Shown here: positions 39,725 through 63,890 of the stretch, in pieces
Position numbering within the stretch: the stretch's first letter is position 1
How the letters are laid out: each line of letters begins with the position of its first letter
The notes under the pieces: model-generated
Told to the model about the DNA's origin: nothing
Seen by the model: only the letters and a program-made list of their open reading frames with translations
Database searches by the model: none
Source: Leucoraja erinacea
Taxonomy: Eukaryota
Direction: 5' to 3'
Assembly: GCF_028641065.1 (NCBI RefSeq)
Contig: NC_073411.1
Span: 10,912,001-10,976,000 of the forward strand
DNA: 64,000 nucleotides
Made by a program: the position numbers and the translations under genes

Positions 39725-39770
<46 letters not shown>

Positions 39771-40116
39771 GGAGGGGGAGGGGGGAGAGGGAGGGGGGGG
39801 AGGAGGGAGGGAGGGGAGGGGGGGGTGGGGGAGAGGGAGGGAGGGGGGGAGAGGGGGGAGAGGAGGTGGGGGTGGGGAGAGAGGGGTGGGGAGAGAGGAG
39901 GGGGCGGGGAAAGTGGGGGTGAGGTAAGATTAAGGGGGAGAGAGGGGTGGGGTCGGAGGAAGGGTAGAGTGGGATTGGGATGGGGGCGGGGGTTGGGAGG
40001 GGGAGGAAGAAGGAATGGTGGGCGACCCATGAGTAGCCCGAGGCCGGTCCCTACAACGGGACCCACTCACTGTCTAGATCCTCGATCAGCCTGGCGGTCC
40101 CTGGCATGTAGTTCAT
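36032..40116 (-). CDS. LSM1: U6 snRNA-associated Sm-like protein LSm1 (133 aa), 4 coding exons
   Basis: join(40071-40116,38000-38068,37167-37282,36032-36202) = 46+69+116+171 = 402 nt, all GT-AG. Protein MNYMPGTARLIEDLDKKHLVLLRDGRTLIGFLRSIDQFANLVLHQTLERIYVGQKYGDIPRGIFIVRGENVVLVGEIDLDKES..DSLDDY contains Sm1/Sm2 motifs. Confidence 0.96.
36440..37088 (-). mobile_element. CR1 (HER1-like) LINE 3' fragment in LSM1 intron 3
   Basis: KKANGMLAFI..LVRPHLEYCVQFWSP..IEGVQRRFTRLIPG plus the conserved CR1 3' UTR. Confidence 0.9.
37167..37282 (-). CDS. LSM1: LSM1 exon 3 (ANLVLHQTLERIYVGQKYGDIPRGIFIVRGENVVLVGEI)
   Basis: Sm2 RGENV motif; acceptor ctccgcag, donor gtaagt. Confidence 0.96.
38000..38068 (-). 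CDS. LSM1: LSM1 exon 2 (KKHLVLLRDGRTLIGFLRSIDQF)
   Basis: Sm1 motif; acceptor cgttgcag, donor gtgagt. Confidence 0.96.
38984..38997 (-). promoter_or_regulatory. Candidate CTCF binding site in LSM1 intron 1
   Basis: Minus strand CCACCAGAGGGCAC fits the CTCF core CCASYAGRKGGCRS. Confidence 0.6.
39601..40010. repeat. G/purine-rich low-complexity tract in LSM1 intron 1
   Basis: Long G homopolymers and GGAG/GGTG runs. Confidence 0.9.
40071..40116 (-). CDS. LSM1: LSM1 coding exon 1 (MNYMPGTARLIEDLD)
   Basis: ATG at 40116 in context gcagcaATG; donor gtgagt. Confidence 0.95.
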
Positions 40117-43235: not shown

Positions 43236-44122
43236 TTAGCCCTCGTCACTTGCCGGGCTTGGCGTTGCTGTTGCGTTCCGTGGCCAGCGGGTAGACAGCA
43301 CCGGGGAGGGTCGGCGTTGAGCCCCTGGAAGAGTCCTGGGAGTCGTCATGCAAACTCCGCCGCTTCTTAGCTTGAAGCTGCGAGACGCCGAGCTTGCCCG
43401 CTTGGGTGGGCTGGAGCCGGGGCTGGGGGCCGCTGCGCCCGGGGGTGGGGGTGGGCGAGGGGCTGGCGCCGGGGGTGGGGGGGCGGGCGAGGGCGGGGGG
43501 GCGCTGGCCGGGGGGGCGAGGCGGGGCGGGGGGCTGGCCGGGGGTGGGGGGGGGGGGGGGGGCGCTGGGCGGGGGGGGGGGGTGGGCGAGGGGCGCTGGC
43601 CGGGGGTGGGGCGCGAGGGCTGGGGGCCTCTGCGCCCGGGGTGGGCGGGGGAGGGCTGGGGGCCTCTGCGCCCGGGGGTGGGCGAGGGCTGGGGGCCTCT
43701 GCGCCCGGGGGTGGGCGAGGGGCGCTGGGCAGGGGCAGGGGCTGGCGGAGGGGGCTTCTTCTCGTCCTCCTCCGAGGAGATGGAAGAGGAGGAGGCGAAC
43801 GAGGTGCAGGAAGAGCCAGATACTGACACAGACGGGGTGGTGGACGGGGAGCTCCTGATGGAGACCAACCCCGAGTCTTCGGCCGAGACCTGCGACTGCG
43901 AACTGGCGGAGCTGGTGGCCGAGACACGCCTGGTGTAGTTCACCTGCAGCTTCGCATTGTCGTCCCCATGGCTGGTAGATGGACAGTATCTGGTCGCGGT
44001 AAGTTCGCCTCAACACCGGCTCGCACGGCTCCGAGATGCGAGGGGTGCCTTTGCGTGGCGCGGGCGTCACGATGCGGGGAGATGTCTTAGCTCGCTCCTT
44101 GCCCTTGGAGGGCTCCACCTTC
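43236..44122 (-). CDS. Probable terminal exon of the INPP5F-like gene: basic, Ser-rich, acidic, then Pro-rich repeat tail
   Basis: CpG-rich island. Phase-2 acceptor ctgtctccattacag opens KVEPSKGKERAKTSPRIVTP. The Ser/Pro-rich frame (VNYTRRVSATSSASS..SEEDEKKPPPPAPAP..DEG*) needs a frame change near 43965. Confidence 0.55.
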
Positions 44123-47100
44123 CTGTAATGGAGACAGTCGCGGTGAACGTCTAGGTGACCCGGAAAGCAACGACCCGCTACTCCCTGGGACGCCCGAATG
44201 TGACCACCATGCCCACATCTCCAACCTCTATCCATGAACCACCCTCCCCGCATCTCCAACCTCTCTCCATAGACCACCATGTCCACATCTTAAACCTTTC
44301 CTCCGTGACTCCCGGCAGCCTGACCAAGGGAGATGGTGGGGAAAAAACTGAACCCAAGCAGGCTGCAGACCATTAGGAGAGAAGTGTTTAAGAGGGAACT
44401 GCAGATGCTGGAGAATCGAAGGTTACACAAAAAAGCTGGAGAAACTCAGCGGGTGCAGCAGCATCTATGGAGCGAAGGAAATAGGCAACGTTTCGGGCCG
44501 AAACCCTTCTTCAGACGTCTGAAGAAGGGTTTCGGCCCGAAACGTTGCCTATTTCCTTCGCTCCATAGATGCTGCTGCACCCGCTGAGTTTCTCCAGCTT
44601 TTTTGTGTAACCATTAGGAGAGAAGTCTCAGGGGAAGAGAACACCACGGCTCCTCTGAATGTCCATAGTTTAGTTAAGCTTGGAGATCCAGCACGGAAAC
44701 AGGCCATTCGGCCCAACACCGACCTTCGATTTGAAAAAATATTTTTTTAGAGATGCAGGGTGAAAACAGGCCCTTCGGCCAGCGATCGCCCCATCCCCGG
44801 GCACCATCCTACACACTGGGGACAAATTACAATTACAATTTACAGAAGCCAATTAACCTACAAACCTGCAAGTTGACAACATTCTTCCTGGAGCAGGGTG
44901 ACCAAAACTGGATAGAATACTCCAGATGTGGACTCACCAACGTCTTGTACAACTGCAACATAATATTCCAACCTCTATACTCACTACCCTGACCGATGAA
45001 GACCAATGTACCAAAAGCCTTCTTGCCCACCCTATCTATCATTGACTCAACCTTCAGAGAACTATGTGCTTGCACTCCTGTACCCCTGTGCTCTACAACA
45101 GACCCCAGGGCTCTGCCGTTCACTGTGAAGGTCCACCCCTGGTTTGACTTCCCAAAATGCGACACCTTGCACTTATGCGGACAGTCCGCATGTGGAATAT
45201 TGTGTGGGAAGCAACTGCAGATGCTGGTTGAAATCGAAGGTAGACACAAAATGCTGGAGTAACTCAGCGGGGCAGGCAGCATCTCCGGAAAGAAGGAATG
45301 GGTGACGTTTTGGGTTGAGACCCTTCTTCAGATTGATGTCAGGGGAGTGGGCGATCCATCCCCTCCCCTTCCCGGTTCTCCCACCAGTCTTACTGTCTCC
45401 GACTACATTCTATCTCTGTGCTGCTCACATGCGTGTCAGGGATTAGGGCTAGTCTCCTTCGACCGGTCCGTTCACAAGCTACTAATATCTGAGGAACCGG
45501 AAAAAAGGATACCCTGATGATATTTCTACTATGATTGGTTCACATGCTATAACCAATCTACAAGTCTGAAGAAGGGTCTCGACCCGAAACGTCACCCTTC
45601 CCTGCTCTCCAGAGATGCTGCCTGTCCCGCTGAGTTACTCCAGCATGTTGTGACTGCCGCCCAACATGTCCACATGTGCACTGCCATGTGCGTTGAAACT
45701 GGGAAGCTAGACAAGTTACTGGGAACCTGTACATCTGTACCTGGGCTGCCTCCGGTGACATACGTTGACGATGCACTTGACCCCAGCCATGAGGAAATGA
45801 ATGAAGGAGATCAGTATGGTCCAGACGCCTTCCATGAAATGTCTACTGCAAGGCACCAAGACATCGATACTGCGTTATTTACCAGACACAACCCTCCCCC
45901 TCAGAACATTCCCCGCAGTGTCTCCTGCGCGGGAACGTCCTTTTCCCGAAACTCCTAACCCTGGAAGAGGATAATCAAGGTCTCCCCCACTGGCCACAGC
46001 ATTGGAGCTGGATTATTTGCTTAAAGCCGACTGGATCTTCTCACTGGGTGAGAGACATAAGCGACTGCAGATGCTGGGATCTTGGAGGAACTCAGCGGGC
46101 CAGGAAGTATCTGTGGGGAAGTGCGCAGATGGCGTTCTGGGTACAGGCCTTTCCTTGGACTGGAAGGACATTGCGCAGTGCTAGCAAGTCCGGGTACGGA
46201 AACTTGAAGAAAACTTCCTCAAAGAGTAGGGCATCCATTGGAATCATAGAGGGGAAGCAGTGGGAGGGAACTCATGTTGGAGAGAGGAGGAGGACTTCTT
46301 CAAAGTGGGAACACTTTTGAGGAGATTTCATAGAGCTGTTGAAATCTGGAGAAAAATACGACACAAAGTGCTGGAGGAACTCGGCATGTCAGGCAGCATC
46401 CGTGGTGGGGAATGGAAAGGTTATGATTCGGGTCGGGACGTTCCTTCAGACTCCCACTGAGGGACTGGGTCACGGGGTCACGAGAACCCACCCCAAACTC
46501 TGTGGGCAGACAGCCAATGTCTTCATACAGTGGCTTATGTGGGCGCCAAAGGTTATCGGGAGAAGACAGGAGAATGGGGTTGAGTGGGAAAGATAGATCA
46601 GCCGTGAAATGGTGGAGTAGACTTCATCGGTCGAATGACAGAATTCTGCTCCCATGACTTATGACCACAGTTCTCTCCGATCCGAAACCAGTCAAAGAAA
46701 ATACTTGGAACAAATGAGGAAGTATTTTGCGTTCCATGCAAACCCCGGCCCCCGGCCTCCAAAGATGTCATGACACAGAGGCAATCTCTTCACAAAAGGC
46801 AGCAGTGGTTGTAGGAATGGCTGGACCCCTTGGCATGGGCAGGTGGGCAAAGGTAGTAAAACGCGAGTGGGACCCTTGGCTTGTAAACAAATGGAAAGTG
46901 CCCTCTGAGTTCCCCCAGCACTCTGGGTGCAGAAAGCATGTGAAGGAATCGAAAGGCAGACCGGGTAGGATTTTGTGTGGATCAGGCGCGTCCCACTCAA
47001 TAACTCACGTGGATCTCTTCTCCGCATTGATCGGCAGTTCTGTTCCTGTGATCGCTCGTCTGGCCCTCCGAATGACCGCAGCTACAGTGTAGAGGTTGTC

Positions 47101-50100
47101 TGAAAAACACTACACATTAGCCATCTACTCCTCCCGATGGCTGACCAAGCCATGGGTCAGCTGTACGTCAATGGAACTGCCCATGCTGGTTTACAACCGA
47201 AGATCGATACAGAATACTGGAGCAACTCCGTGGGTCAGGCAGCATCTCTGGAGAAAAGGAATAGGTGACGTTTCGGGTCGAGACCCTTCTCCAGGCGGAG
47301 AGACGGGGGAGAGGAAAGCTAGAGGTATGAATAGGTGCAAAAGAACAAATGAATGAAAGGTGTGCAGAAGGACAAATCAAAGCCAGCAACGTTAACCAAG
47401 GAAAGATGGAGCCCACAATGCTCCATTGTTGGCTGAGGAGAAGGTTGAACTAAGCAGGACAACAGTGAAACCAGTAGGCTGACTAGGGTGGGGGAGGGAC
47501 AGAGAGAGAGGGGGAAAGCAATGATTACGAAGTTAGAGGCATCAATGTTCATACCGCTGGGTTGTACCCTGCCCTGGAGAATACGATAGGTGACGTTTCG
47601 GGTCGGGACACTTTTTCAGACTGATTGTCGGGGGAGGAAGGGAAAGAAAAGCTGAGAGACAGGATGGGGCAACCTTCGGTTTCGGCCCAAATCTCCTTCG
47701 CTCCATAGATGCTGCTGCACCCGTTGAGTTTCTCCAGCATTTTTGTGTACCTTATAGTTCAGAGGAGATCTGGTAAAGACTTTTTCTCACTCGGAGGGTG
47801 GTTCAATTTAGAACACACTGCTTCAGATAGGTACTCCAAGAACATGAGTGACCATCTAGCCTGGAAGGTTACAGATCAAATGCCAGGGGATTAGCATCGG
47901 GTTCGATCCTGACAGCGGATGCTGTTTGTATAGAGTCCGGACTCTCCCTGTGACCTGCGTGGGTTTTCTCCGGGTGCTCCGGTTTCCTCCCACACTACAG
48001 AGACCACGGGGTGTGATCTCAAGAGCGATACAACGTGGTGAAGTGTGGAACTTGTTAAATGGCTTGGGTGGAGGAAGAGGGCAAGGGGAAGATTCGGTGG
48101 GTAGTTTAGTGTTGTATCTCTAAACTAAACTACACTGAACCAAGTGACAAGGTGCTTGCTTACCTTGAACGACGCCATGCTGGTACTGAAGAGCTGGCCT
48201 CAGTACGTACAGATTGGTGCCCTTTCCAGTGATGGTGTAATAAATATTCATACAAATCTTCCCCGCCTTTTCCCTGGTGTAGTGGTGATGACCTTCAAAA
48301 ATAATATATATATTTTTTTTTTTCCTCCTCTCCATCCCCTTTTACCTTTTCCCCGGCCTTTCTTTACTATCTCACGAACTAACACGATCATCACTGCTTA
48401 TGATACTCCTTTCTTTCGGCTTGTTTTCCTCATCTCGGTCCTACAAGATTTCCCCCTTACCCTTAAACTGTGACCCATATAACCATATAACAATTACAGC
48501 ACGGAAACAGGCCATCTCGACCCTTCTAGTCCGTGCCGAACACATATAATCTCCCTAGTCCCATATACCTGCGCTCAGACCATAACCCTCCATTCCCTTC
48601 CCATCCATATAACTATCCAATTTATTTTTAAATGATAAAAACGAACCTGCCTCCACCACCTTCACTGGAAGCTCATTCCACACAGCTACCACTCTCTGAG
48701 TAAAGAAGTTCCCCCTCATGTTACCCCTAAACTTCAGTCCTTTAATTCTCATGTCATGTCCCCTTGTTTGAATCTTCCCTACTCTCAGTGGGAAAAGCTT
48801 TTCCACGTCAACTCTGTCTATCCCTCTCATCATTTTTAAAAACCTCTATCAAGTCCCCCCTTAACCTTCTGCGCTCCAAAGAACAAAGCCCTAACTTGTT
48901 CAACCTTTCTCTGTAACTTAGTTGCTGAAACCCAGGCAACATTCTAGTAAATCTCCTCTGTACTCTCTCTATTTTGTTGACATCCTTCCTATAATTAGGC
49001 GACCAAAATTGTACACCATACTCCAGAATTGGCCTCACCAATGCCTTGTACAATTTTAACTTGTTCTGGACTTCCCCAACATCAGGAACAATCTTCCTGC
49101 ATCTAGCCTGTCCAACCCCTTAAGAATTTTGTACGTGTCTATAAGATCCCCCCTCAAACTTCTAAATTTAGCAAGTACAAGTCGAGTCTATCCAGTCTTT
49201 CTTCATATGAAAGTCCTGACATCCCAGGAATCAGTCTGGTGAACCTTCTCTGTACTCCCTCTATGGCAAGAAAGCGTCTCGTCTGTAGAAGTGTCTCGAC
49301 CCGAAACCTCACCTTTTCCTTCTATCCAGAGACGCTGCCTGTCCCGCTGAGTTACTCCAGCGTGTTGAGTCAGTGAGCTGAACTTGGTTCCCCGGATTTG
49401 GGCACCAGAGCAGAGTTTGCCTCTACTCCCCGACACAGACCCACAGCCCCAAATGAGACGAGACTCACACTTACCAATTTCTATTTTGAGCAAGTCTGGC
49501 AGAACGATGCGCTTTGTTTTAGAGACTTGGCATTTTTTGGTGATGCTGCAAAGAAAAATGTGGTCAGAACACACAAGGCCGAATCAAGAGTTTCCTGGAT
49601 ATTTCTGCTTCATACTTTTGAGACCGCAACTGTATGACCATTTGACCTTTCATACCCATATGTTCAAAGTTCATAAGTCATAGGGTACAGATTTAGGCCA
49701 TTCGGCCCATTGAGTCATCTACGCCATTCAATCATGGCCGATCTATCTTTCCATCTCACCCCCATTCTTCTGCCTTCTCCCCGTAACCTTTGACACCCTT
49801 AGTAATCAAGAACCTATCCATCTCCGCTTTAAAAATACCCATTGACTTGTCCGCCACAGCCCTCTGTGGCAACGAATCCCACAGATTCACCACCCTCGGA
49901 CTGAAGCCGTTCCTCCTCATCTCCTTCCTAAAGGTACGTCCTTTTATTCTGAGGCTGTTCCCTCTGGTCCCAGACGCTCCCACTAGTCCCACCATCCTCT
50001 CCACATCCACTTTATCCAGGCCTTTCAAGATTCGGTAAGTTTCAATTAGTTCCCACCCACCCCCACCTCCCCCCCCCCCCCCCCCCCCCCCCCCCCCGTT

Positions 50101-53100
50101 CCTCTCATCCTTCTCAGTTCTTTGAAAGAGTGTTCCAAATTATCCCACTTTCTCATAAATTTAAGGAGCAGAATGAGGCCATTCAGCCCATCAAGTCTAC
50201 TCCACCGTTCAATCACGGCTGATCTATCTTTCCCTTTCAACCCCATTCTCTTGCCTTCTCCCCATAACCTCTGACACCCATACTAATCAAGAATCTGTCT
50301 ATCTCTGCCATAAAAATGACATTGACTTGGCCTCCATAGCCTTTTGTGGTAATGATTTTCACAGATTTCCCTCTTAACCCCTTATCCTCTCTTCGCCCCA
50401 TAAGCCTTGACACCCTTACTAATCAAAAGTCTTCTTCATTACTTTCCATTAAGAATGACCTCTTTCCAAATATTTATCTAATTCCGTCATGAACATAGAA
50501 ATATAGAAAATAGGTGCTGGAGTAGGCCATTCAGTCCCAGATGGCTGACCATCCAGAATCAGTACCCCGTTCCTGCTTTCTTCACATAGCCCTAAGCACT
50601 ATATCCAACCCTCTTTTGAATACATCCAATGAATTGGCCTCCACTGCCTTCTGCGGCAGAGAATTCCACAGATTCAAAACTCTCTGGGTGAAAAAGCTTT
50701 TCCTCATCTCATTCCTAAATGGCCTACCCCATATTCTTAAACTGTGACCCCTGGTTCTGGACTCCCCCAAAATGGGGAACATTTTTTCCTGCATCTTTTC
50801 CTGCATCTGTCCAATCCCTTAATAATTTTATATGTTTCTATAAGGGCCCATTTTTCCTTCCAAATTCCAGTGAATATAAGAGCAGTCAATCCATTCTTTC
50901 ATCATATGTCAGTCCTGCCATTCCAGGAATTATCCTGGTAAACCTACACTGTACTCCCTCCACATTACCGGTGGACCTTCTGAGATTGGATGAAATATTT
51001 TACAGTTACTCACTGAGCAAAGTAACAAGCTTCATCGGTAAGCAGGAGCAAGATGTCCAGATTCTGCCTGTGCCATCTCTTCCCCCTGAAACAAGAAATG
51101 AACAGCAAGGGCAACAAAACAATGAAGAGATTGGCAGAAAGGCAGAGAAAGTGCAGCCCCTCAACTTCTGAAAGAAGTGGAAAATGCTGGTGATATTCGT
51201 GAGGTCAGGCAGCAACCGTGGAGAGAGAAACAACCTTTGACTGAAAAGGTTGGAATACCGCCATTGTTTTAAGTTTATTTTAGTTTAGTTTAGAGATATG
51301 GCGCGGAAACAGGCCCTTCGACCCACCGAGTCCGCGCCGACCAGCGGTCCCCACACATTAACACCATCCTGTACTAGGGCCAATTAACCTGCAAGCATGG
51401 ACGTCTTTGGAGTGTGGAAGGAAACCAAAGTTCTCGGGGAAAACCCACGGGGAGAAGGTAAAAACTCCGTACAGACAAGCATCCGTAGCCAGGATCGAAC
51501 CCGGGTCTCCGGAGCTGTAAGCGCTGTAAGGCAGCAACTCTACCGCTGCGCCACCGTGTCGCACAGAGTTGCAGAGAATGGGGAGGGTGTCAAGAGAGTG
51601 AATGGGGGGGTGGTGACCATGAGGGAAAATGGATGACACAGGTTGCCAATGGTGGTGAAGGTATTAAAGGCAACAAATGAGTCCAGTCGAGGTGCAAATA
51701 AGGAAGGATGAAGGAGGGTACAGGAGGCAAGGTGAGGGGATGATAAAGAATACTGCTGCAAAACACAACCAGGTCAGGGAGCATCCTCTCTGGACCAACC
51801 TCGCCCATTTCCCCTTGATCTCTGTCCTAGCATAAACATTCCCCTTCTTCTCTTTATCCCAACCACTCTTCTCTGTAATTTCAAACAAGCCTGCATTCGA
51901 ACCTTTACAATTCTAATGAAAGGTCAGAAACTCGAATCCTCAACTCTATTTCTCTGTCCACAGTTGCTGCTTGATCTGTAATAGTCTGACGAACATGGCT
52001 GTTTCTGTAGGTACAATTCCAATTCCCCTTTAGACTTTAATTTGGCGATTCAGCATGGAAACAGGCCCTGCGACCCACCGAGTGTGCGCCGACCAGCGGT
52101 CTCCCCGTACGCGAGCACTATCCTATACACGTTGTGGCCAACTTACAATTGACAGAAACCAATTTTTACCAAAGCCAATTGACCTACAAACCTGCACGTC
52201 TTTGGAGTGTGGGGGGAAACCGGAGCACCCGGAGAAAACCCACATGGTCACGGGGAGAACGTACAAACTCCGTACAGACAGCACCCGTAGTCAGGATCGA
52301 ACCTGTGTCTCTAGTGCAGTAAGGCAGCAACTCTACCCTGCACCACTGTGCCATCCCTGTGCCGGACTTGATGTCAAGAGGAACTCACTCACTACAAATA
52401 TTTCACACGACACAAACTCGCAGCCATTTTTCCAAAACCCATGGGATTCACTTGAACTTGTAACATCAGCTTGTGGTGGTTTGTATCGACATACAGCATG
52501 GAAACAGGCCCTTCGGCCCACCGAGTCCACACTGACCGTCCATCACCCGTTCACACGAGTTCCATGTTATCCCATTTTCTCATCCACTCCCAACGCACCA
52601 GGGGACGATTTAGAAAGCCGATTAGCTTACAGGCGCTCATGTCTTTGGTATGTGGGAGGAAAATGGAGCACCTGGAGAAAACCCACGCGGTCATGTGGAG
52701 AACGTGCTAACTCCACGAAGACAGCACCCGAGGTCAGGATTGAGGTCAGGGAGGCAGCCATGCCATTGTGCCTCATGTTCACAGTTACAATTGCAAAACC
52801 AACCTCACGTTTTCATCAGGAGACTCATATTCTAAAGTAACTCTGTTAAAAAATATTAGTTTTGGTTCATTTGAGGCTTTTGTCGCCCCTCCCAACTCTC
52901 AGTATCACATCATAAACAGTTTATCTTGCCGCGAATATGACAGTCTTAACTTAACACATTCTCTGTAACACCCTGAACCTAATCTGCTGATATTTTCAGG
53001 CAGCATTTTTGTTCATTAATGAGGCGCAGAATATCACAGAGTGTTATAGAGTCATACAGTGCGGAAACAGGCCCTTCGTCCCAACTTGCCCATGCTGACC

Positions 53101-56100
53101 AACATGTCCCATCTACACTAGACCCACCTGCCTGCGTTTGGCCCATATCCATCTAAACCTGCCCTACCAATGTACTTGGTCATCCAATCAGTCTGAAGGA
53201 GGGTTTCGGCCCGAAACGTCACCTATTTCCTTCACTCCATAGATGCTGCTGCACCCGCTGAGTTTCTCCAGCATTTTTGTGTACCTACCAATGTACTTGT
53301 CTACATGTTTCTAACAATGTTGCGATAGGTCCCGTTAATATCATAGAAACATAGAAACATAGAAATTAGGTGCAGGAGTAGGCCATTCGACCCTTCGAGC
53401 CTGCACCGCCATTCAATATGATCATGGCTGATCATCCAACTCAGTATCCCGTACCTGCCTTCTCTCTATTCCCCCTGATCCCCTTAGCCACAAGGGCCAC
53501 ATCTAACTCCCTCTTAAATATAGCCAATGAACTGGCCTCAACTACCCTCTGTGGCAGAGAGTTCCAGATTGAAATCCAAATCATATTGAAAGAGCATATT
53601 CCCCAATCACTGATATAAAGTAGCATTGCCATGCAAGGCATTCCTAATTACATAGAAAGCTGTGCACCGATGAGCTACTATGTTGAGAAATGTATCCTAC
53701 ATCTTGCACTCTGTATCTTCCCCTTTGCTTTACCTATTGTACTGGAGGTAGACTTGATTGTATTTGTGTATAATGTTATCTGATCGAGACACAAAAAGCT
53801 GGAGTAACTCAGCGGGACAGGCAGCAAACCTGGAGAGAAGGAATGTGTGACGTTTCGAGTCAAGACCCCCATCTTCTGTCCGCAGAACCGAAGCAGGATC
53901 TCGACACGAAACGTCACCCATTCCTTCTCTCCAGGTTTGCTGCCTCTCCCGCTGAGTTAATCCAGCATTTTGTGTCTTTCTTTGGTTTAAACCAGCATCT
54001 GCAGTTCCTTCCCTCGCTCCGCACTGCACCTCGGTATACATGACAATATTAAACTTAAGTCTAATTCTCAACGAAGTATTAAAACACAGACTCTTACTGA
54101 ATACTAATTGCTTCAAAACAATGAGCGTCTGATAGACCTTGGATTACAGCTAACAAACAGCCAGCCTCCCAAGAACGCCTCGGTCAGTGGTATCAGGAGT
54201 GCACTAAAGCTGCTGATTAAAACTTCGATCTCCTGCTTCTTTAGTTTCTGCTGTTCCTTAACGAGCAAAGCTCTTGCGGGCTTCTGCTTTCCGATCAGCG
54301 CCTGGATGTTTATGCTCAATTGAGCCCCGTGCATCAGATCTGTGAGCAAATGGAAGACTACTCGATTACTATCATCGTGCCTGGGACAAAGACAACAAAA
54401 GAACTGCAGAGTTTAAGAAGGAACTGCAGATGCTGGAGAATCGAAGGTTACACAAAAAAGCTGGAGAAACTCAGCGGGTGCAGCAGCATCTATGGAGCGA
54501 AGGAAATAGGCAACGTTTCGGGCCGAAACCCTTCTTCAGACTGATCGGGGGCGGGGACAAGAAAGGGAAAAGGAGGAGGAGCCCGAAGGCTGGGGGATGG
54601 GAGGAGACAGCAGGGGGGCTGAGGAAGGGGAGGAGACAGCAAGGATGTCAGCAGATCTATATCGGTGAGACCAAGCGTAGGTTGGGTGATCGTTTCGCCG
54701 AACACCTCCGCTCGGTCCGCAATAACCAAGCTGACCTCCCGGTGGCTCAGCACTTCAACTCCCCCTCCCACTCCGTCTCCGACCTCTCTATCCTGGGTCT
54801 CCTCCATGGCCACAGCGAGCAGCACCGGAAATTGGAGGAACAGCACCTCATATTCCGTTTGGGGAGTCTGCATCCCGGGGGCATGAACATCGAATTCTCC
54901 CAATTTTGTTAGTCCTTGCTGGTGCTGGAGTAACTCAGCTGGGCAGGCAGCATCTCTGGAGAAGAGAGAACAGGTCGGGACCTTTCCTCAAGCTGAAAGT
55001 CTGAAATCAGGCGGATCGATATTCCATATCTATATTCTCCAGCGATGCTGCCTGACCAACTGAGTTATTCCAGCACTTTGTGTCTATCATTGGTCTGGGA
55101 CCCTGTTGTGTTCGTGTTACGTACTGGCGCCACTGTTAATGTTAAGAAATCAAAGCCATTCCCATGTGGCTGTAGTCCATCCTTGGTTCCCTCTATGAAG
55201 GCAGCTCTGAACCTTCTGCACAGTAGAAGGAATGGAAGGGTGGACTACTGTCTAAATGTGGAGAGCATTCGGAAATCAGAGGTGCAAAGGGAGTGGTGTA
55301 AGATTCCAAATGGGTTCATTTGCAGTTTGAGTCGGTGGCAATGACAGCAATTGCAATTATTTCAAGCATTCATTTCAAGGGGACTTGAATATAAAACCCA
55401 GCTGAAGCTATATCGGGCGCGGGTGTGGCCACATTTGGAGTATTGTGAGCAGTTTTGGGCCACGTAACTGAGGAAGGATGTGTTGGCTATGGAGAGGGTC
55501 CAGAGGAGGTTTACGAGAATGATCGGGGGATGATTGAGTTAATGTACGAGGAGGGTTTAACGGCACTGGGCCCGTACTCCCTGGAGATAGAAGGATGAGG
55601 GGAAGGGGGGTGGGGGGGGATCTCATTGAAACATACCAAATGGTGAAAGGCTTCGATAGGGAGGACATGGAATGGATGTTTCCAGTCATGGGAGAGTCTA
55701 GTACCAAAGGGCGCAGCCATCAGAATAGAGATGAGGGGGTATTTCTTTGAACCAGAGGATGGTGAATCGGTGGAATTCATTGCCACAGACGGCTGTGCAG
55801 GGCAAGTCATTAACGCAAAGATTGGTAGGTTCTTGATTAGTAAGGGTGGCAAATTGGCAATGGTTAGGGGGGGAGAAGGCAGGAGAATGGGGTTGAGAGG
55901 GAAAGATAGATCAGCCATGACTGAATGGCGGTGTAGACACGATGGGCTGATTAGCCTAATTTTGCTCCTATCACATGAACACGAGTCTTTCCGTGAAAAG
56001 CCATCTCAGCAGCCACCCTGTCACCCCCCCACCCCCACCCCCACTCCCCCAGGTTCTTACATGTTTGAATAAGGACATCCTTATTGTTCCAAACTCCAAG

Positions 56101-59100
56101 CTCACAGACAAGGGTCCTGGCCCCTGTGCAGAACTAGGCTGCCAACACCAGGTGTACAGGCGTTGAAATAGGATGTGGTGGAAGGGGGGGGGGGTAGAAA
56201 GGTGCCCAGGTCCTTAAGTTATAGGAGCAGAATTAGGTCCATTCAGCCCATCAAGTCTATTCCGCCTTTCAATCATGGCTGATCCATCTCTCCCTCTCAA
56301 TCCCATTCACCCGCCTTCTCCCCGTAACCCCTGACACAGATACGATTCAAGAACTTGTCCATTTCTGCCTTGACAATTTCCATTGACTTTGCCTCCACAG
56401 CCGTCTGTGGAGATGCATTCTACAGATTCACCACCCTCTGGCTAAAGATATTCCTCCTCATCTCCTTTCCAAAGGCCTCCTTTCATCGAGCCAGCACCGC
56501 CATTCAATATGATCAGATTCAGATTCAGATTCAATTTTAATTGTCATTGTCAGTGTACAGTACAGAGACAACGAAATGCATTTAGCATCTCCCTTGAAGA
56601 GCGACATAGCAAACGATTTGAATAAAAAAAATAATAAGTGTCCGGGGGGGATGTGGTGATTGGCAGTCACCGAGGTACGTTGTTTAGTAGAGTGACAGCC
56701 GCCGGAAAGAAGCTGTTCCTCGACCTGCTGGTTCGGCAACAGAGAGACCTGTAGCGCCTCCCGGATGGTAGGAGGGTAAACAGTCCATGGTTGGGGTGAG
56801 AGCAGTCCTTGGCAATGCTGAGCGCCCTCCGCAGACAGCGCTTGCTTTGGACAGACTCATGGCAGATCATCCAGAATCAGTGCCCCGTGGCTGCCTTCTC
56901 CCCATATCCCTTGATTCCGTTAGCCCCGAGAGCTCTATCCAAGTCTCTCTTGAGTACATCAAGGGCAATGCTGTACAGAGTGCCCAGTGAGATGGGTCAG
57001 CAGGTCCCCTCACACCAATGTCTACTATTGATAGGGAACCCTGGAGGTAGGAAGCGTTGGCCTCAGCTGCGTACTCACCGATCACAGTCTGCCTGTACGC
57101 GTGTCTGAAGTGGTGGAGGTAATATCTGTTGGCCGATCGACAACCATCCTTCATTGCCCCCGAAAATTTACTCTCTCCGGTTCGAGTGAAGTCACTCTAA
57201 CAAAACAAGCAACACATTTTAGAAACATGGAAACATAGACAATAGGTGCAGGAGGAGGCCATTCAGCCCTTTGAGCCAGCACCGCCATTCATTGTGATCA
57301 TCCCCAATCAATAACCCTTCTCCCCATATCCCTTGACTCCACTAGCCCCTAGAGCTCTATCTAACTCTCTCCTAAATCCATCCAGTGACTTGGCCTCCAC
57401 CGCCCTCTGTGGCAGGGAATTCCACAGATTCACACAACTCTCTGCGTGGAAAAGTTTCTCCTCATCTCAGTCCAAATGGCCACAGATTCACAACTCTCTG
57501 TCTGGAAAAGTTTCTTCTCATCTCCCAAATGGCCACAGATTCACACAACTCTCTGGGTGGAAAAGTTTCTCCTCATCTCAGTCCCAAATGGCCACAGATT
57601 CTCACAACTCTCTGGGTGGAAAAGTTTCTCCTCATCTCAGTCCCAAATGGCCACAGATTCACACAACTCTCTGGGTGGAAAAGTTTCTCCTCATCTCAGT
57701 CCCAAATGGCCACAGATTCTCACAACTCTCTGGGTGGAAAAGTTTCTCCTCATCTCAGTCCCAAATGGCCACAGATTTTGTCTTAGTACACTGATGTCTT
57801 CTGATATTAAACATAACAAGAACACGGAGTCAACGTGTCCCTTGCTCTCCCATATCTAGCCCCTAGACTGTGGACCAGCATCCCTCTTCCCATCAGAACT
57901 GCCCCCTCCATCGACTCCTTAAAGTCGAGACTTAAAACTCATCTTTACTTTCAAGCCTTTCTTGACGTCCTCTGAGGGAGGCTATATGTATGTATTTATG
58001 TATGTACTTAATCTATGAACTAATGTTGTATAACGTTAGTACCTCCACCAATGTAAAGCATTTTGGTCAACGAGAGTTGTTTTTTAAATGTGCTATAGAA
58101 ATAAAAGTGACTTGACTTGACTTGACACTCCGCTAAGACAACAGCTGATCTTTTAGCTCAGTCCCACAGCCCTGCACTAACCCTCTGGCCCCTTAATCCT
58201 GTAGTACCTGAAACGCTAAGGGTTGGGATGAACTTCCATCACGTTCTTTGAAACTGAGCCAAGAGGCTATTCTTTGGGGGGCACAGTGATACAGCGGGTA
58301 GAGCTGCTGCCTCACAGCGCCCGAGACCCGGTTTCGATCCTGGCGATCTGAAGAAGGGTCTCGACCCGAAACGTCACCCATTCCTTCTCTCGAGATGCTG
58401 CCTGTCCTGCTGAGTTACTCCAGCATTTTGTATCTCTCTTCGATTTAACCAGCATCTGCAGTTCCTTCCTACACACATTCATCTTTGGTTCCTTCTATGT
58501 GTAATTTGTATGTTCTCCCTGTGACCGCGTGGGCTTGCTCCGGTTTCCTCCCACATTCCAAAGATGTGCGGGTTTGTAGGTTAATTGGTTTCCTTGAGAA
58601 TTCGCGCAGGCATGTAGAATAGAACTTGTATATGGGTTATTGCTGGTTGGCATGGACTCGATGGGCTGAAGGGCCTGTTTCCATGCTGTATCTCTAAACT
58701 CCGCTGACTAGATAGCAGCAGCAAAAAAGCTTTTCACTGTACCTCGGCACACGTGATAATAAACTAAACTTAGCCTATAAATCTGTACGTCTTTGGAGTG
58801 TGGGAGGAAACTGGGCATCCTGGAAAAAACGCACGCAGCTCATGGCACCCGTAGTCAGGATCGAACCCGGGTCTCTGGCGTAGTAAGGCAGCAACTCTAC
58901 CACTGCGCCACTGTGCCGGCCTCTGATGATAGTCAGTGTAAACACCATTTCCATGCTGGATCACTCTAAGAAATATTGCAGGGCAGAAGGTGGAGCAGTG
59001 GTAGAGTCGCTGCCTTTCAGCGCCAGAGACCCGGGTTCGATCCTGACTACGGGCGCTGTCTGTACGGAGCGTGTACATTCTCCCCGTGAACTGTGTGGGT

Positions 59101-62100
59101 TTTCTCCGGGTGCTCCGGTATTCTCCCACACACCAGGGACGTGCAGGTTTGTAGGTTAATTGGCTTTGGTAAAAATTGCAAATTGTTCCTAGAGTGAAGG
59201 ATACTGCTGGTATACACGGACTCGGTGGGCCGAAGGGCCTGTTTCCGCACTGCATCCCTAAACCAAACTAAACTAAGCGCAGGTTGATGGATTAATTAGC
59301 CTCTGCTAATGGATGAATGAATATTTTGTTGCCTCATGTGACAAGTCACAGTGAGATTCTTTGCTTGCGTAGCTAATGTATCCAAATAGTCACCACATAG
59401 AGGGCGCTTACTGTTACAAAGTACCCCTGGCCAGGTCCCCCTTTGTTCTCCTCCCCTCCTCCTCCCCCCCCCCCCCCCCCCCCACCCAGGGAGGTCCCCC
59501 ATGCAGTTCCTCCATTGTACCTTTCCCTAGTGCATGGATGAGTGGTGAAGAGTTGATCAGTGTGAGATGGTTGGTGAGGTGAGGACAGTTCGAGGAGAGG
59601 AGGTCCTACCTTCATGGCAGCTGTGCCCGCGTACTGCCTGCTGATGGCATCTCCGTTATTCGCCCACATGTTCTGGAACGTTTTCAGACTCTTGTGGGAG
59701 AGGCGGCAGTGTGCGGGGAGGAGGCTGAGCACCTTCAGCTGCAAGAGAGGAGCGGAGGGGAAAAAAATGGAGTTGGGTTGCGGCAAAAAGCCGTGTGTAG
59801 CTCGACACCGCTGAGCCGGAGGACGCGAAACTGAGGGGTGAATAATCCAGATGCATGCTCCCCTCCGCGCACCAACACTGGAACAAGCACCAAGGACAAA
59901 CCCGGAGGACTTCCACCCACAACTACAATGCTATCATTCAACAGGGGCCCACTTGCCATCACTTGTTATCACTTCACTCAGGGGCCCACTTGCCATCGGG
60001 CAAGCTGACACCCTGGCCAGTCCTCCACTGGTTCTAGGAGCATGATGGGCCAAATAACCATGCAGCTGGTCACAATGATGGGGGGGGGGGAGGTGAGCAT
60101 GGGTTAAAGGTTTAGTTTGGGAGGGGAGGGGGGGGGGAATAAAGAGGTTTGGATGGAGAGGGGAGGAAGGGAAGGGAGGACGTGGGGCAAAAAGGAGGAG
60201 GAGCGAGTGAGAGTGAGAAGGACAAGAGTGGAGAGATGGAGGAGGGAGAGGGTTTGGGGAGGGGTGGGGGAGAGGAGGAGAACAGGATCAAGATGGGGTT
60301 TGGGAGGGGGGGGGGGGGGGGGAGCAGAGGCGGCTTTACCTGCTGCTGCCCAGGATGTGGCGGGAAATGGCGGCCTGCACGATGTTGGTGCGATCCAGGC
60401 TGTCCATGCAGTTGGTACGAAACACTCCCTCCTGCTCCATCATCACCACGCCGTTGTGGGCGCTGCAAAACAAAATGGTGGAGACGGCGTAACGGCAGCG
60501 AAGAGTGGCGGATTAGTACGGGGGGGGGGACGGGGAAAGAGAAAGGGGAGACGGTGATGTAACGAGATATGGAACAAGTGAATGAAAAATACACAAAAAA
60601 GTACACGATGATAACAGAGACAGGCCATTGTTAACTGTGGTCTAGGTCAAAACGAGTTACAGACAACGAGACTCAACCAGATGACTTTGAAGCTAGTAAA
60701 CATAGACAATAGGTGCAGGAGTAGGTCATTCGGCCCTTCGAGCCTGCACCGCCATTCAATATGATCATGGCTGATCATCCAACTCAGTATCCCATCCCTG
60801 CCTTCTCTCCATACCCCCTGATCACTTTAGCCACAAGGGCCACATCTAACTCCCTCTTAAATATAGCCAATGAACTGTGTGGCCTCAACTACCTTCTGTG
60901 GCAGAGAATTCAACAGATTCACCACTCTCTGTGTAAAAAATGTTTTTCTCATCTCGGTCCTAAAGGATTTCCCCCTTATCCTTCAACTGTGACCCCTAGT
61001 TCTGGACTTCCCCAACATCGGGAATAATCTTCCTGCATCTAGCCTGTCCAACCCCTTAAGAATTTTGTAAGTTTCTATAAGGTCCCCCCTCAATCTTCTA
61101 AATTCTAGCGAGTACAAACCGAGTCTATCCAGTCTTTCTTCATATGGAAGTCCTGCCATCCCACGAATCAGTCTGGTGAACCTTCTCTGTACTCCCTCTA
61201 TGGCAAGAATGTCTTTCCTCAGATTAGGAGACCAAAACTGTACGCAATACCTGTACTCCAGGTGTGGTCTCACCAAGACCCTGTACAACTAGGGTAAAAC
61301 AACTAGGGTGAGGGAGGGATGGAGAGAGAGGGGATGCAAGGGTCACTTGAAGTTAGAGAAGTCAATATTCACACCACTCGGTTGTAAGCTGCTTAAGCAA
61401 AATATTGCCATAGAGGGAGTGCAGAGAAGGTTCACCAGACTGATTCCTGGGATTTCAGGACTGTCTTATGAAGAAAGACTGGATAGACTTGGTTTATACT
61501 CTCTGGAATTTAGGAGATTGAGAGGGGATCTTATAGAAACTTACAAAATTCTTAAGGGGTTGGACAGGCTAGATGTAGGAAGATTGTTCCCGATGTTGGG
61601 GAAGTCCAGGACAAGGGGTCACAGCTTAAGGATAAGGGGGAAATCCTTTAAAACCGAGATGAGGAGAACTTTTTTCACACAGTGAGTGGTGAATCTCTGG
61701 AACTCTCTGCCACAGAGGGTAGTTGAGGCCACAGTTCATTGGCTATATTTAAGAGGGAGTTAGATGTGGCCCTTGTGGCCAAGGGGATCAGAGGGTATGG
61801 AGAGAAGGCAGGTATGGGATACTGAGTTGGATGATCAGCCATGATCATATTGAATGGCGGTGCAGGCTCGAAGGGCCGAATGGCCTACTCCTGCACCTAT
61901 TTTCTATGTTTCTATGATGAGGTGCTGTTCGAGTGTAGATGGGACATGTTGGCCAGTGTGGGCAAGTTGGGCCTGTTTCGATGCTATGTGGCTGTACGCC
62001 TACATGTAATGCTCACCTGAACCATCGCTGATCGCTGATGATGTTGCTAATTCCTTCAGTCAGGAGCTCCACGTTTTCAAACCGCCGGCCCTGGCTGCAC

Positions 62101-63890
62101 AGAGAGAAGAGTTGATGTTGCAGGATAGAGACAGCTGCGTTATATATTTCCCCCCCACTCCCGTCAGGCAGAAGATACCGAAGCTTGAAAGCATGCACCA
62201 CCAGATTCGGGAACTGCTTCTTCCCCACTGTTATCAGACCACTACACCCTCCTCCCATAAACTTGGGTGTAATCCCAATCTTCCAACCTACCTCGTTGCA
62301 CACCTGGCGCTTTTTTAATATCGGCGCTTTCTCTTTAATTGTAACGCACTTATGCCGCAACACTATACTCTGTACTCGGGTATTTTTAACATAGAGTACA
62401 GCACAAGAACAGGCCCTTCGGCCCACAATGTCTGTGCCGAACATGATGCCAAGACAGCACTGCTCTGCGGTAGATTTGCTGACTTACAGCACCATACACC
62501 CAGGTTCGATCCTGACTAGGGGTGTTGTCTGTACGGAATTTGCACCTTCTCCCTGTGACCATGTGGGTTTCCTCTGGGTGCTCCGGTTTCCTCCCACATC
62601 CCAAAGACTTGGATTTCGTTTCCTCCTGGTTAATTGGCCTCTGTAAATGTGTAGGACAGGACTAGCGGACAAGTGATCGATGGTCGGCGTGGACTCGATG
62701 GGCCGAAGGGCCTGTTTCCACACCTGTATCTCTAAATGAACTATACTACAACACCCCAGGACCAAAGGGCGAGGAGTCTAGTGGGGGCAAGAGTGTTGCC
62801 TAATCCCAGCCCTAGCCAGCCCTTCACTGCGTTCCCCGGGCACCCGTCACCTAAACCCAAAAGGGAATTGGTGGAATGACGTGGAGTAGGGAGTGGAGAA
62901 AAATACCTTGTGGCGTGAAGAGGAGGGGGGGGGACCTCATTGAAACCCACTGTATAATGAGAGTCCTGGATAGTGAATGTGGAGAGGATGTTTCCACTAG
63001 TGGGAGAGTCTAGGACAAGTCATAGCTTCAGAATTAAAGGATGTTCCTTTAGAAAGGAGATGAGGAGGAATTTATTTAATCAGAGGGTGGTGAATCTGTG
63101 GAATTCATTGCCACGAAAGGTTGTGGAGGCCAAGTCCATGGAGNNNNNNNNNNNNNNNNNNNNNNNNNNNNNNNNNNNNNNNNNNNNNNNNNNNNNNNNN
63201 NNNNNNNNNNNNNNNNNNNNNNNNNNNNNNNNNNNNNNNNNNNNNNNNNNNNNNNNNNNNNNNNNNNNNNNNNNNNNNNNNNNNNNNNNNNNNNNNNNNN
63301 NNNNNNNNNNNNNNNNNNNNNNNNNNNNNNNNNNNNNNNNNNNNNNNNNNNNNNNNNNNNNNNNNNNNNNNNNNNNNNNNNNNNNNNNNNNNNNNNNNNN
63401 NNNNNNNNNNNNNNNNNNNNNNNNNNNNNNNNNNNNNNNNNNNNNNNNNNNNNNNNNNNNNNNNNNNNNNNNNNNNNNNNNNNNNNNNNNNNNNNNNNNN
63501 NNNNNNNNNNNNNNNNNNNNNNNNNNNNNNNNNNNNNNNNNNNNNNNNNNNNNNNNNNNNNNNNNNNNNNNNNNNNNNNNNNNNNNNNNNNNGGGGGGGT
63601 GTCAGGGGTTATGGGGAGAAGGCAGGAGAATGGGGTTTGGAGGGAAAGCTCGATCAGGCATGATTGAATGGCGGAGTAGACTCGATGGGCCAAATGGCCT
63701 AATTCTGCTCCTATCACTTATGGACATGAACTTGAACCTTTGACCATGTGCTTCAGCGCTCTTACCATTGATGGTGGAAATCAAAGGCCACATAGATGAG
63801 ACGCGGGTCATTGAAAATCTCAACCTGCCTCCGGTAGGCGTCGCTAATCACCTTCTCTGGCCCCGTCTGTTTCACAAGATTGATGATAAC
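43236..63890 (-). CDS. INPP5F/SAC2-like phosphoinositide phosphatase, divergent, 5'-partial (upstream exons lie beyond the window); about 13 exons listed individually
   Basis: Hand-translated exons are collinear with the recalled INPP5F sequence from VIINLV through the SAC C-terminus and hSac2 domain. Boundaries are GT-AG and phases match, except at two G-run sites. Too diverged to call the canonical INPP5F ortholog. Confidence 0.88.
43430..43730. repeat. GC-rich 33-nt tandem repeat plus degenerate 21-nt units within the terminal exon
   Basis: Unit gggcgagggctgggggcctctgcgcccgggggt encodes PSPTPGRRGPQ on the minus strand. Confidence 0.75.
44386..44612. mobile_element. Penelope-derived fold-back insertion with perfect 96-bp inverted arms
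   Basis: Arms 44421-44516 and 44517-44612; direct repeat accattaggagagaagt at 44369-44385 and 44610-44626. Confidence 0.9.
45566..45593 (+). ncRNA. Minimal hammerhead-ribozyme-like motif (representative of many PLE 3' UTR copies)
   Basis: CTGAAGA-A-GGGT(CTCG)ACCC-GAAA-C-GTC: CUGANGA core, stem II, GAAA and an NUH triplet; stems I and III are rudimentary. Confidence 0.6.
45883..45960 (-). CDS. Candidate INPP5F-like exon (78 nt): VRSFGKRTFPRRRHCGECSEGEGCV
   Basis: Good acceptor cctcttccag and donor gtaaat; open phase 2-2 frame linking the flanking candidates; no recognised homology. Confidence 0.4.
46705..46785 (-). CDS. Candidate INPP5F-like exon (81 nt): LPLCHDIFGGRGPGFAWNAKYFLICS(K)
   Basis: Weak match to PHEDIIG...GKNFLMSK. 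Splice sites are weak (gag acceptor, gtattt donor). Alternatively it reads through to the TGA at 46692-46694. Confidence 0.5.
47009..47099 (-). CDS. INPP5F-like exon (91 nt): (D)NLYTVAAVIRRARRAITGTELPINAEKRS
   Basis: Matches DTLQCIAEMLQITKQAMGSDLPIIEKK; acceptor gtttttcag, donor gtgagt; phase 1-2. Confidence 0.8.
48164..48292 (-). CDS. INPP5F-like exon (129 nt): (G)HHHYTREKAGKICMNIYYTITGKGTNLYVLRPALQYQHGVVQ
   Basis: Same codon count and register as the recalled segment PEPTLFGKPKFSCMRLHY..TLR..GK (CMNIYY vs CMRLHY); donor gtaagc; phase 1-1. Confidence 0.75.
48425..49270 (-). mobile_element. Nested CR1 LINEs: a second subfamily (about 48475-49060, ttatatgg-repeat tail) inserted into the first
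   Basis: ORF fragments YKALVRPILEYGVQFWSP and FFTQRVVAVWNELP; the host sequence ccttaaactgtgacc..ttgttctggac is split by the insert. Confidence 0.85.
49475..49545 (-). CDS. INPP5F-like exon (71 nt): ITKKCQVSKTKRIVLPDLLKIEI(G)
   Basis: Matches QRLSLENLEKIEIG; acceptor ttctttgcag, donor gtaagt; phase 2-1. Confidence 0.85.
51014..51085 (-). CDS. INPP5F-like exon (72 nt): GKRWHRQNLDILLLLTDEACYFA
   Basis: Matches DVDVLLLLSNSAYYVA; acceptor cttgtttcag, donor gtgagt; phase 2-2. Confidence 0.85.
54138..54339 (-). CDS. INPP5F-like exon (202 nt): (D)LMHGAQLSINIQALIGKQKPARALLVKEQQKLKKQEIEVLISSFSALLIPLTEAFLGGWLFVSCNP
   Basis: DLMxG start and FxGGWxxxxCxP end match the INPP5F hSac2 entry; acceptor gctcacag; weaker donor gtctat; phases 1-2 fit the neighbours. 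Confidence 0.85.
54646..54912 (+). mobile_element. Penelope-like element GIY-YIG endonuclease C-terminal fragment, joined in inversion to its own 3' UTR (54411-54645, minus)
   Basis: YIGETKRRLGDRFAEH..PVAQHFN..H..RKLEEQHLIFRLGSLHPGGMNIEF is typical of the PLE endonuclease. Confidence 0.88.
57079..57196 (-). CDS. INPP5F-like exon (118 nt): SDFTRTGESKFSGAMKDGCRSANRYYLHHFRHAYRQTVI(D)
   Basis: Aligns to GDFTRTGERKLAGVMKDGVNSANRYYLNRFKDAYRQAVID; acceptor ttgttag, donor gtgagt. Confidence 0.95.
57422..57777. repeat. 59-bp minisatellite (6 units) derived from CR1 sequence
   Basis: Unit ccacagattc(a/t)cacaactctctgggtggaaaagtttctcctcatctcagtcccaaatgg at 57422, 57480, 57533, 57592, 57651, 57710. Confidence 0.92.
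57881..58126 (+). mobile_element. L2-clade LINE 3' end
   Basis: IPLPIRTAPSIDSLKSRLKTHLYFQAF-type terminus, AATAAA and a (GACTT)n tail. Confidence 0.65.
59610..59738 (-). CDS. INPP5F-like exon (129 nt): LKVLSLLPAHCRLSHKSLKTFQNMWANNGDAISRQYAGTAAMK
   Basis: SAC-family WANNGDxISRQYAGT motif; acceptor ctcttgcag, donor gtagga; phase 0-0. Confidence 0.95.
60340..60462 (-). CDS. INPP5F-like catalytic exon (123 nt): AHNGVVMMEQEGVFRTNCMDSLDRTNIVQAAISRHIL..; SAC CX5RT motif
   Basis: Acceptor ttttgcag, donor gtaaag; the SAC signature RxNCxDxLDRTN is seen directly. Exon length is out of phase with the next exon (see findings). Confidence 0.92.
60700..61916. mobile_element. Two oppositely oriented CR1 3' fragments (60700-61290 minus; about 61403-61916 plus)
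   Basis: ORFs 60983-61288 (-) and 61308-61685 (+) encode almost the same peptide. The second copy interrupts a PLE fragment. Confidence 0.88.
62017..62094 (-). CDS. INPP5F-like exon (78 nt): (C)QGRRFENVELLTEGISNIISDQRWF
   Basis: Acceptor ctctgtgcag, donor gtgagc, phase 2-2; aligns to RGMKFENVQTLTDAIYDIILDMKW. Confidence 0.9.
63144..63591. other. Assembly gap (N) within a CR1 fragment
   Basis: Run of N. Confidence 1.
63766..63890 (-). CDS. INPP5F-like exon (125 nt): VIINLVKQTGPEKVISDAYRRQVEIFNDPRLIYVAFDFHHQ(C)
   Basis: Acceptor cctcctgcag, donor gtaaga; aligns to recalled INPP5F VIINLVDQAGREKIIGDAYLKQVLLFNNSHLTYVSFDFHEHC. Confidence 0.92.

Follow-up and report, generated by a model that had tools for sequence, protein, structure and literature searches.

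Does the INPP5F/SAC2-type gene that runs through a 64,000-nucleotide stretch of the skate Leucoraja erinacea genome (the window; G000:C35:10912001-10976000) encode the animal's ordinary SAC2 phosphatase, or is it a second, much older copy? The gene, for which we use the working name SAC2b, lies on the minus strand of contig C35, begins upstream of the window and ends at window position 43244; nine of its 21 exons lie upstream of the window and 12 inside. On balance, we favor the view that SAC2b, whose active-site motif is intact, probably derives from a whole-genome duplication that predates the split of sharks and bony fishes, is likely to be a working phosphatidylinositol 4-phosphate (PI4P) phosphatase, and in elasmobranchs is predicted to be anchored by an added helix.

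A second SAC2 gene and its age

An earlier note on this stretch had proposed a retained ohnolog and had suggested looking for a separate, conserved INPP5F beside BAG3 and MCMBP. There is such a gene on contig C15 (G000:C15), where an INPP5F of 20 intact exons sits between a BAG3-type gene and MCMBP; with this slot occupied, the window gene does not hold the canonical INPP5F position. A genome search with the exon that encodes SANRYY found two places, the exon itself and C15 (76%), and a stricter first look with the full protein of the Rhinoraja ortholog gave 26 matches, 17 on C35, eight on C15 and one on C2. Identity to chicken INPP5F over the Sac region is 85% for the C15 gene and 57% for the window gene. 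The shared exon structure and domain order might suggest that the window gene is the sole or true INPP5F ortholog and merely fast evolving, but the chicken comparison, the BAG3-type and MCMBP neighbors of the C15 gene and the grouping of that gene with canonical INPP5F refute this reading, to which we give essentially no weight.

Which genes, then, are the closest relatives of SAC2b? A search with exon 8 returned 439 proteins; among the 120 matches listed, the best 14 come from sharks, rays and skates (13 species), and 12 of these are named "SAC2-like". The coelacanth has both a SAC2 and a SAC2-like gene. These NCBI entries for elasmobranchs and coelacanth, "phosphatidylinositide phosphatase SAC2-like" (e.g., XP_032869712.1, XP_078285002.1 and XP_067879504.1; coelacanth P0147, H3AT83), are SAC2b orthologs, and the gene is therefore already in the databases under an automatic name. 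In IQ-TREE phylogenies built from 736 columns of the Sac and hSac2 domains, using LG+G4 (30 rows) or a mixture model (20 rows, leaving out 10 of the 30, including three long invertebrate rows), the window gene falls in a clade of elasmobranch and coelacanth proteins apart from INPP5F, as the earlier note had anticipated, with support of 100/100 (LG+G4) and 100/99 (mixture). Vertebrates form a clade (100/100), and hagfish branches outside both copies (99/97 and 99/96 under the two models). SAC2b does not group with the INPP5F of tetrapods and ray-finned fishes, either in the trees or in the approximately unbiased (AU) test.

AU tests on 17 rows rejected a duplication confined to chondrichthyans (p=1e-4), one confined to the coelacanth (p=9e-6), and the pairing of the window gene with the skate's own INPP5F that would be expected of a recent copy or haplotype duplicate (p=2e-29). 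A processed retrocopy is ruled out by the 20 introns. The duplication took place after the split from invertebrates and before the split of sharks and bony fishes.

As to which genome doubling was responsible, the second, jawed-vertebrate round is favored. A grouping of hagfish with SAC2b is rejected (p=0.012). Two points pull the other way: a grouping of hagfish with canonical INPP5F, which would place the duplication in the first round, is not rejected by the AU test (p=0.087), with hagfish represented by one partial row and lamprey by none, and under LG+G4 the join of coelacanth and elasmobranch copies was flagged as long branches meeting, a warning that is absent under the mixture model. 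Published work (PMC7269912) treats the jawed-vertebrate round as an allotetraploidy in which genes were lost asymmetrically, and sets out a scheme of alpha-beta chromosome pairs.

How widely did the second copy survive? When the coelacanth protein was used as the query, none of the other 119 rows (best 120 of 1202) was named SAC2-like or approached the self score. None of 41 representatives of 50%-identity clusters joined SAC2b in the tree, the coelacanth copy itself not being among those representatives; a BLAST screen of 378 proteins gave no further candidate, and an Atlas search returned SAC2 clusters only. Among the matches listed, there was no SAC2b record from a chimaera, nor any from mammals or other bony vertebrates, which is no proof of loss.

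The surroundings of the two genes also bear on their origin. On C35 the order is BAG (10.995 Mb), SAC2b, LSM1 and a GRK first exon (10.939 Mb), with a TACC gene at 4.45 Mb and a DDHD gene at 6.24 Mb; on C15 it is a GRK first exon (20.56 Mb), BAG (20.16 Mb), INPP5F, MCMBP (19.96-19.98 Mb), a DDHD gene (19.90 Mb) and TACC (18.49 Mb). Thus, the BAG, GRK4/5/6-type, TACC and DDHD families are represented on both contigs, and a BAG gene lies directly upstream, in the same orientation, of both SAC2b and INPP5F. We take the C35 set to correspond to human 8p11 (BAG4, LSM1, DDHD2, TACC1) and the C15 set to human 10q26 (GRK5, BAG3, INPP5F, MCMBP, SEC23IP, TACC2). An alternative is that a block containing BAG and INPP5F was copied by segmental duplication or transposition, as the differing order outside this pair, with GRK downstream on C35 and upstream on C15, would allow. 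We consider this improbable, given that TACC and DDHD paralogs accompany both genes, at a distance of 4.7-6.5 Mb on C35 and of no more than 1.5 Mb on C15, that a third TACC is present on C1, and that the age of the duplication matches the vertebrate doublings. The separate INPP5F, the distinct clade and the paralogous neighbors support the ohnolog that the earlier note had suggested.

Exon structure, constraint and the frame breaks

SAC2b exons were set by tblastn with relatives and by inspection of splice sites; a 266-residue L. erinacea database model matches the upstream exons at 100%. Six exons in the window, all on the minus strand, have exactly the length of their counterparts in this genome's INPP5F: exon 10 (63766-63890; 125 nt), which carries the end of the Pfam Syja_N match to the Sac domain (E 3.6e-8; 258-297 bits on orthologs), exon 11 (62017-62094; 78 nt), exon 13 (59610-59738; 129 nt; WANNGD and YAGT), exon 14 (57079-57196; 118 nt; SANRYY), in which KDGCRSANRYYLHHFRH starts at 57151 on the minus strand, and exons 16 (51014-51085; 72 nt) and 18 (48164-48292; 129 nt) of the hSac2 domain. 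Three others differ from INPP5F by whole codons: exon 15 (54138-54339; 202 versus 199 nt), where hSac2 starts, exon 17 (49475-49545; 71 versus 74 nt), also within hSac2, and exon 19 (47009-47099; 91 versus 88 nt), where it ends. The sole exception in length is the catalytic exon 12 (60340-60462), with 123 nt as assembled and 121 nt in INPP5F. Exon 20 (45741-45845; 105 nt) has no separate INPP5F counterpart, and exon 21 (43244-44122) encodes a Ser/Pro-rich, low-complexity tail that runs to a TGA. All 20 introns are GT-AG, although the boundaries were picked among GT/AG sites. SAC2b is compact (32 kb, compared with ~144 kb for INPP5F) and has a higher GC content at third codon positions (0.68 versus 0.49).

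The earlier note was thus right that INPP5F-type exons occur in INPP5F order, here on the minus strand, but it counted ten where the window holds 12, and exon 20 went unnoticed. Its statement that all phases are consecutive fails at the joint of exons 12 and 13, where the 123 nt as assembled stand against 121 nt. The end it gave, 43236, is displaced by the homologous stop, TGA at 43244-43246, which matches the end of the thorny-skate protein.

SAC2b has diverged strongly, as claimed: its identity to the skate's own INPP5F is 54% in the Sac region and 26% in hSac2. Some of the substitutions quoted in support of that claim are not specific to the paralog, since the skate's own INPP5F reads KDGYNS; the Cys of KDGC occurs on the window branch alone. 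Measured from the duplication node, the window gene is at a distance of 1.20 and INPP5F at 0.18 (~6-fold); for the coelacanth, the figures are 0.69 for SAC2-like and 0.15 for SAC2.

Has this rate erased the enzyme? The CX5RT motif, CMDSLDRT (60387-60410, minus strand), retains the catalytic Cys, Asp, Arg and Thr, and the equivalents of human C458 and D460 are present in 11/11 SAC2b rows. Both residues are required for the PI4P phosphatase activity of human SAC2 (PMC4395482, PMC4395491). The second Cys of the motif, found in 19/19 outgroup rows, is Ser in the window gene and in 6/11 SAC2b rows overall, and Asn in Hemitrygon. As the equivalent Cys of synaptojanin 2 has been modeled as able to form a disulfide with the catalytic Cys under peroxide (PMC10924134), altered redox control of SAC2b is, by analogy, a possibility only. 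The basking shark SAC2-like protein (P0013) has Ala in place of the Thr that follows the catalytic Arg, along with changes at conserved residues nearby; judging from its residues, this copy may be impaired.

The hSac2 domain, which had been called barely recognizable, is diverged yet plainly there: a profile built from canonical and invertebrate rows, with no SAC2b rows, matches the window model with E 1e-24. Pfam hSac2 scores above cut-off in 6/8 SAC2b proteins; of the other two, the coelacanth model stays below cut-off and the thorny-skate model has no match, and each of these models is missing exons. A structure prediction for the Rhinoraja ortholog from a 118-row alignment (mean predicted local distance difference test score, pLDDT, 80.6) contains confident Sac and PH-like hSac2 domains followed by a disordered tail, and its best PDB matches are yeast Sac1, Fig4 and hSac2 (4xuu). 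Both the CX5RT motif of the active site and the fold of hSac2 are retained in SAC2b.

We used protein-level constraint in place of dN/dS, and SAC2b is under clear constraint at this level. The window gene retains 135 of the 160 sites that are invariant in 19 outgroup rows. Relative to thorny skate, 4/145 invariant sites have changed, compared with 47/484 elsewhere (p=0.005), and changes avoid the outgroup-invariant sites in 7/7 pairs tested (p 0.005 to 6e-18). The exonic differences listed in DNA runs X1 and X11 are synonymous in 4/4 cases (chance 0.002-0.005).

If the gene is under constraint, why is its frame broken? In the assembly, the end of exon 12 is in phase 2, whereas phase 0 is needed at exon 13; because exon 12 is 2 nt too long, the assembled frame hits a stop in exon 13. 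The two extra bases, at 60348-60349, are missing from one contig of run X1, so that exon 12 becomes 121 nt and the frame is open; the likelier placement of this two-base gap yields the same residues as in the orthologs. Exon 21 is open in one frame throughout to the TGA at 43244. However, its middle fits relatives solely in another frame, with a +1 shift near 43965 and a second shift in a GC-rich repeat, and the two therefore compensate. The segments 43450-43720 and 39590-39930 are rich in G/C homopolymers; the first contains a short tandem repeat within exon 21, and assembly errors are likely in it. No in-frame stop occurs in exons 1-12, nor in exons 13-20 when these are read in the homologous frame. 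Rather than a fixed loss, the break is likely to reflect an allele or a mistake in the assembly.

Several observations speak against a fully working skate gene. The X1 contig that restores the frame is single, has a depth of 5.8 and extends only 16 letters past the site, and the X11 contig starts beyond the two-base site and does not reach it. RNA reads on exons 12-13 were zero in two RNA runs (the contigs of X15, and ~6% of X21, from a related species), and expression may thus be low or tissue-limited. The database model for the closest species ends at 266 residues, and the thorny-skate model is without hSac2 exons 16-18. As to expression in other species, the preprint text of a catshark tissue paper does not mention SAC2b. 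Records for horn shark, Narcine and catshark list several isoforms per SAC2b gene, a hint, under this kind of annotation pipeline, of transcript support.

One explanation would be that the ancient paralog works in sharks and rays but is decaying in rajid skates, with the break fixed or common and the gene silent or truncated. This would account for the insertion in exon 12 and the two shifts in exon 21 as assembled, for database models that are truncated or lack exons in both rajids, for the missing RNA reads and for the longest branches of the tree, which are skate rows. We think it unlikely, though it deserves more weight than a segmental origin. The two bases are absent from X1, the exons contain no stop in the frames described, and all introns keep GT-AG, with the caveat given above. 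The exonic differences are all synonymous, and only 2/22 changes on the window branch fall on invariant sites, one of them reverting to the ancestral residue. A pseudogene should carry fixed disabling changes and have lost constraint; here, the break is absent in X1 and constraint is seen at both the protein and the read level, in few samples.

The exon 20 helix and the remodeled tail

What distinguishes SAC2b most from INPP5F is what follows hSac2. Exon 20 has equal phase in and out, so that it preserves the frame. It codes for a hydrophobic amphipathic helix, after which come a Cys and basic residues. The helix has a 100-degree periodicity in 9/9 elasmobranch species (shuffle p 0.003-0.03). 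Its 19-residue hydropathy is 1.5-2.0 in 8/9 species and 0.92 in Mobula; in the region after hSac2, canonical rows reach no more than 0.87 and the coelacanth copy 0.38. In 8/9 rows, no other stretch of the protein is as hydrophobic as the helix. It occurs in elasmobranch rows only, being found neither in INPP5F nor in the coelacanth copy. The Cys lies 25 residues from the start of the helix in 7/9 species and 21 in Mobula; in the thorny-skate model, exon 20 has an earlier end. Exon 20 could be either new sequence or the remodeled start of the old last exon, split by a new intron.

Farther downstream, the tail has changed as well. Two motifs common to amphioxus, hagfish and INPP5F, SCGI and a C-terminal CQT-II-I, survive in the coelacanth copy, whereas 7/7 full-length elasmobranch rows lack them, and a profile of the canonical tail gave no clear match to SAC2b rows (best E 0.054, coelacanth). 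Although the C-terminus had been described as replaced, "remodeled" fits better, since the coelacanth copy keeps both ancestral motifs and the horn-shark copy a remnant.

From its composition, the exon 20 helix may be a membrane anchor; its polar stripe suggests a helix lying in the plane of a membrane rather than crossing one. Certain findings do not sit easily with an anchor: exon 20 is skipped in the Scyliorhinus torazame model and in one Narcine isoform, and the helix of the Rhinoraja model (residues 728-754) is of low confidence (pLDDT 46-71). Four SAC2b database models end before the exon 20 region.

On a less probable reading, the same ancient, active paralog is recruited like ordinary SAC2 and its helix packs on hSac2 or on a partner protein. 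INPP5F has a basic, mildly amphipathic helix after its hSac2 domain, and the exon 20 helix would be a remodeled version of it. That INPP5F segment occupies about the same place (moment 1.15-1.33), the alignment sets the start of the exon 20 helix against it, and a polar stripe would suit a protein interface too. Yet mean hydropathy rises from between -0.7 and -1.1 in INPP5F to between +0.9 and +1.8, the helix is the protein's most hydrophobic stretch in nearly every row, and the Cys keeps a fixed place in most species. We see this as a minority reading, albeit a more serious one than decay in skates.

How might SAC2b have arisen, and how would it act if the helix is an anchor? The BAG-INPP5F pair would have been doubled, most likely in the jawed-vertebrate-specific round, after which the copy beside LSM1 evolved some six times faster, presumably keeping its chemistry while changing its address. 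In the elasmobranch copy, the wide hydrophobic face of the helix would insert into the bilayer, possibly assisted by lipidation of the Cys that follows, and the anchored enzyme would remove the 4-phosphate of PI4P at that membrane.

Neighboring genes and side observations

Downstream of SAC2b, and tail-to-head with it, is an LSM1-type gene (36032-40116, minus strand, ends approximate) with four coding exons, one of which matches Pfam LSM below the cut-off (E 0.007); its identity is assigned from motifs. In human, LSM1 and BAG4 adjoin directly, and SAC2b occupies that spot here. The first coding exon of what we take to be a GRK4/5/6-type gene (MELENIV; 27320-27371, minus strand) resembles sequences on C15 and C3 and, weakly, one on C8, and is possibly a fourth GRK4/5/6 ohnolog.

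Upstream of the window, on the minus strand (L006:3320-3436 and L004:9390-9890), the BAG gene beside SAC2b encodes an N-terminal WW domain (Pfam E 3.5e-14) as well as a BAG domain, and no IPV-like motif was found in it; the C15 gene has WW and IPV-like motifs, as in BAG3. Since human BAG4 is not known to have a WW domain, the C35 gene looks like a BAG4 that has retained an ancestral one.

On C15, exon 1 of INPP5F is preceded, at a distance of a few kb, by an 800-codon open frame resembling retroelement pol (L044, G000:C15:20134726-20137224, minus strand). Exon 15 of this canonical INPP5F (G000:C15, ~19,996,020) reads DPMQG in shark and skate and DLMQG in other vertebrates, a Pro specific to cartilaginous fishes. 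Three further hSac2-family matches, at G000:C30:27211649, C14:25460775 and C1161:98332, have no Sac match listed on the same contigs and are likely to be TPRG1/TPRG1L-type genes; two such genes, rather than three, might be expected.

SAC2b among the Sac-domain phosphatases

How does SAC2b compare with known phosphatases? With INPP5F/SAC2, represented by human hSac2 (PDB 4xuu) and the C15 copy, it shares the Sac and hSac2 domains, the CX5RT motif and all intron positions through exon 19; it differs in its extra helix exon, its ~6-fold longer branch and, in elasmobranchs, the loss of the tail motifs. Mammalian SAC2 is a PI4P 4-phosphatase that acts on endosomes or granules, and its punctate location depends on the catalytic domain together with hSac2 or the tail, and on Rab5 or Rab3 (PMC4395482, PMC4395491, PMC6829663). 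Canonical SAC2 is soluble and recruited by PI4P, by Rabs and through hSac2 or the tail, whereas elasmobranch SAC2b is predicted to anchor itself. The coelacanth SAC2-like protein differs from the elasmobranch copies in having no helix and in keeping the ancestral tail motifs.

SAC1/SACM1L (yeast Sac1, PDB 3lwt, 4tu3, 8c81) resembles SAC2b in its Sac fold and CX5R(T) motif, but has no hSac2 and belongs to a separate family with its own locus, which we take to be the weaker match on C2. SAC1 is a PI4P phosphatase that hydrophobic C-terminal transmembrane segments tether to membranes (PMC4395482). By analogy, the exon 20 helix may give a SAC1-like outcome; unlike the SAC1 segments, it is single and amphipathic, with a long tail of low complexity after it.

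More speculatively, and with distinctly less confidence than in the origin and activity of SAC2b, we envision that a sixth Sac phosphatase was present in jawed vertebrates from the start and that sharks, rays and skates made it self-anchoring. They would have dropped tail motifs that persist from amphioxus to mammals and gained the 105-nt exon, which leaves the frame intact and could be spliced in or out; its amphipathic helix, possibly lipidated, might fix the enzyme to a membrane or lipid droplet. A second active-site Cys, which may be peroxide-sensitizing, would have been lost repeatedly.

Our literature search found no description of SAC2-like as a separate gene; subscription papers were mostly outside this search, and supplements of genome papers may list it. 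As retained ohnologs are familiar in cartilaginous fishes and the gene already has automatic database names, the surprise is limited. The gene itself is real and old, a second SAC2 that carries an extra exon specific to its lineage. Five vertebrate Sac-domain phosphatases have been counted (PMC4395482, PMC4395491), and SAC2b makes a sixth. INPP5F is a gene of a Parkinson's-disease risk locus (10.1101/2020.01.21.914317), and the two 2015 studies (PMC4395482, PMC4395491) did not settle how SAC2 comes to be recruited to membranes. The coelacanth copy, with the old tail and no helix, and the elasmobranch copy, with a new helix and none of the old motifs, amount to a natural swap experiment on SAC2 targeting.

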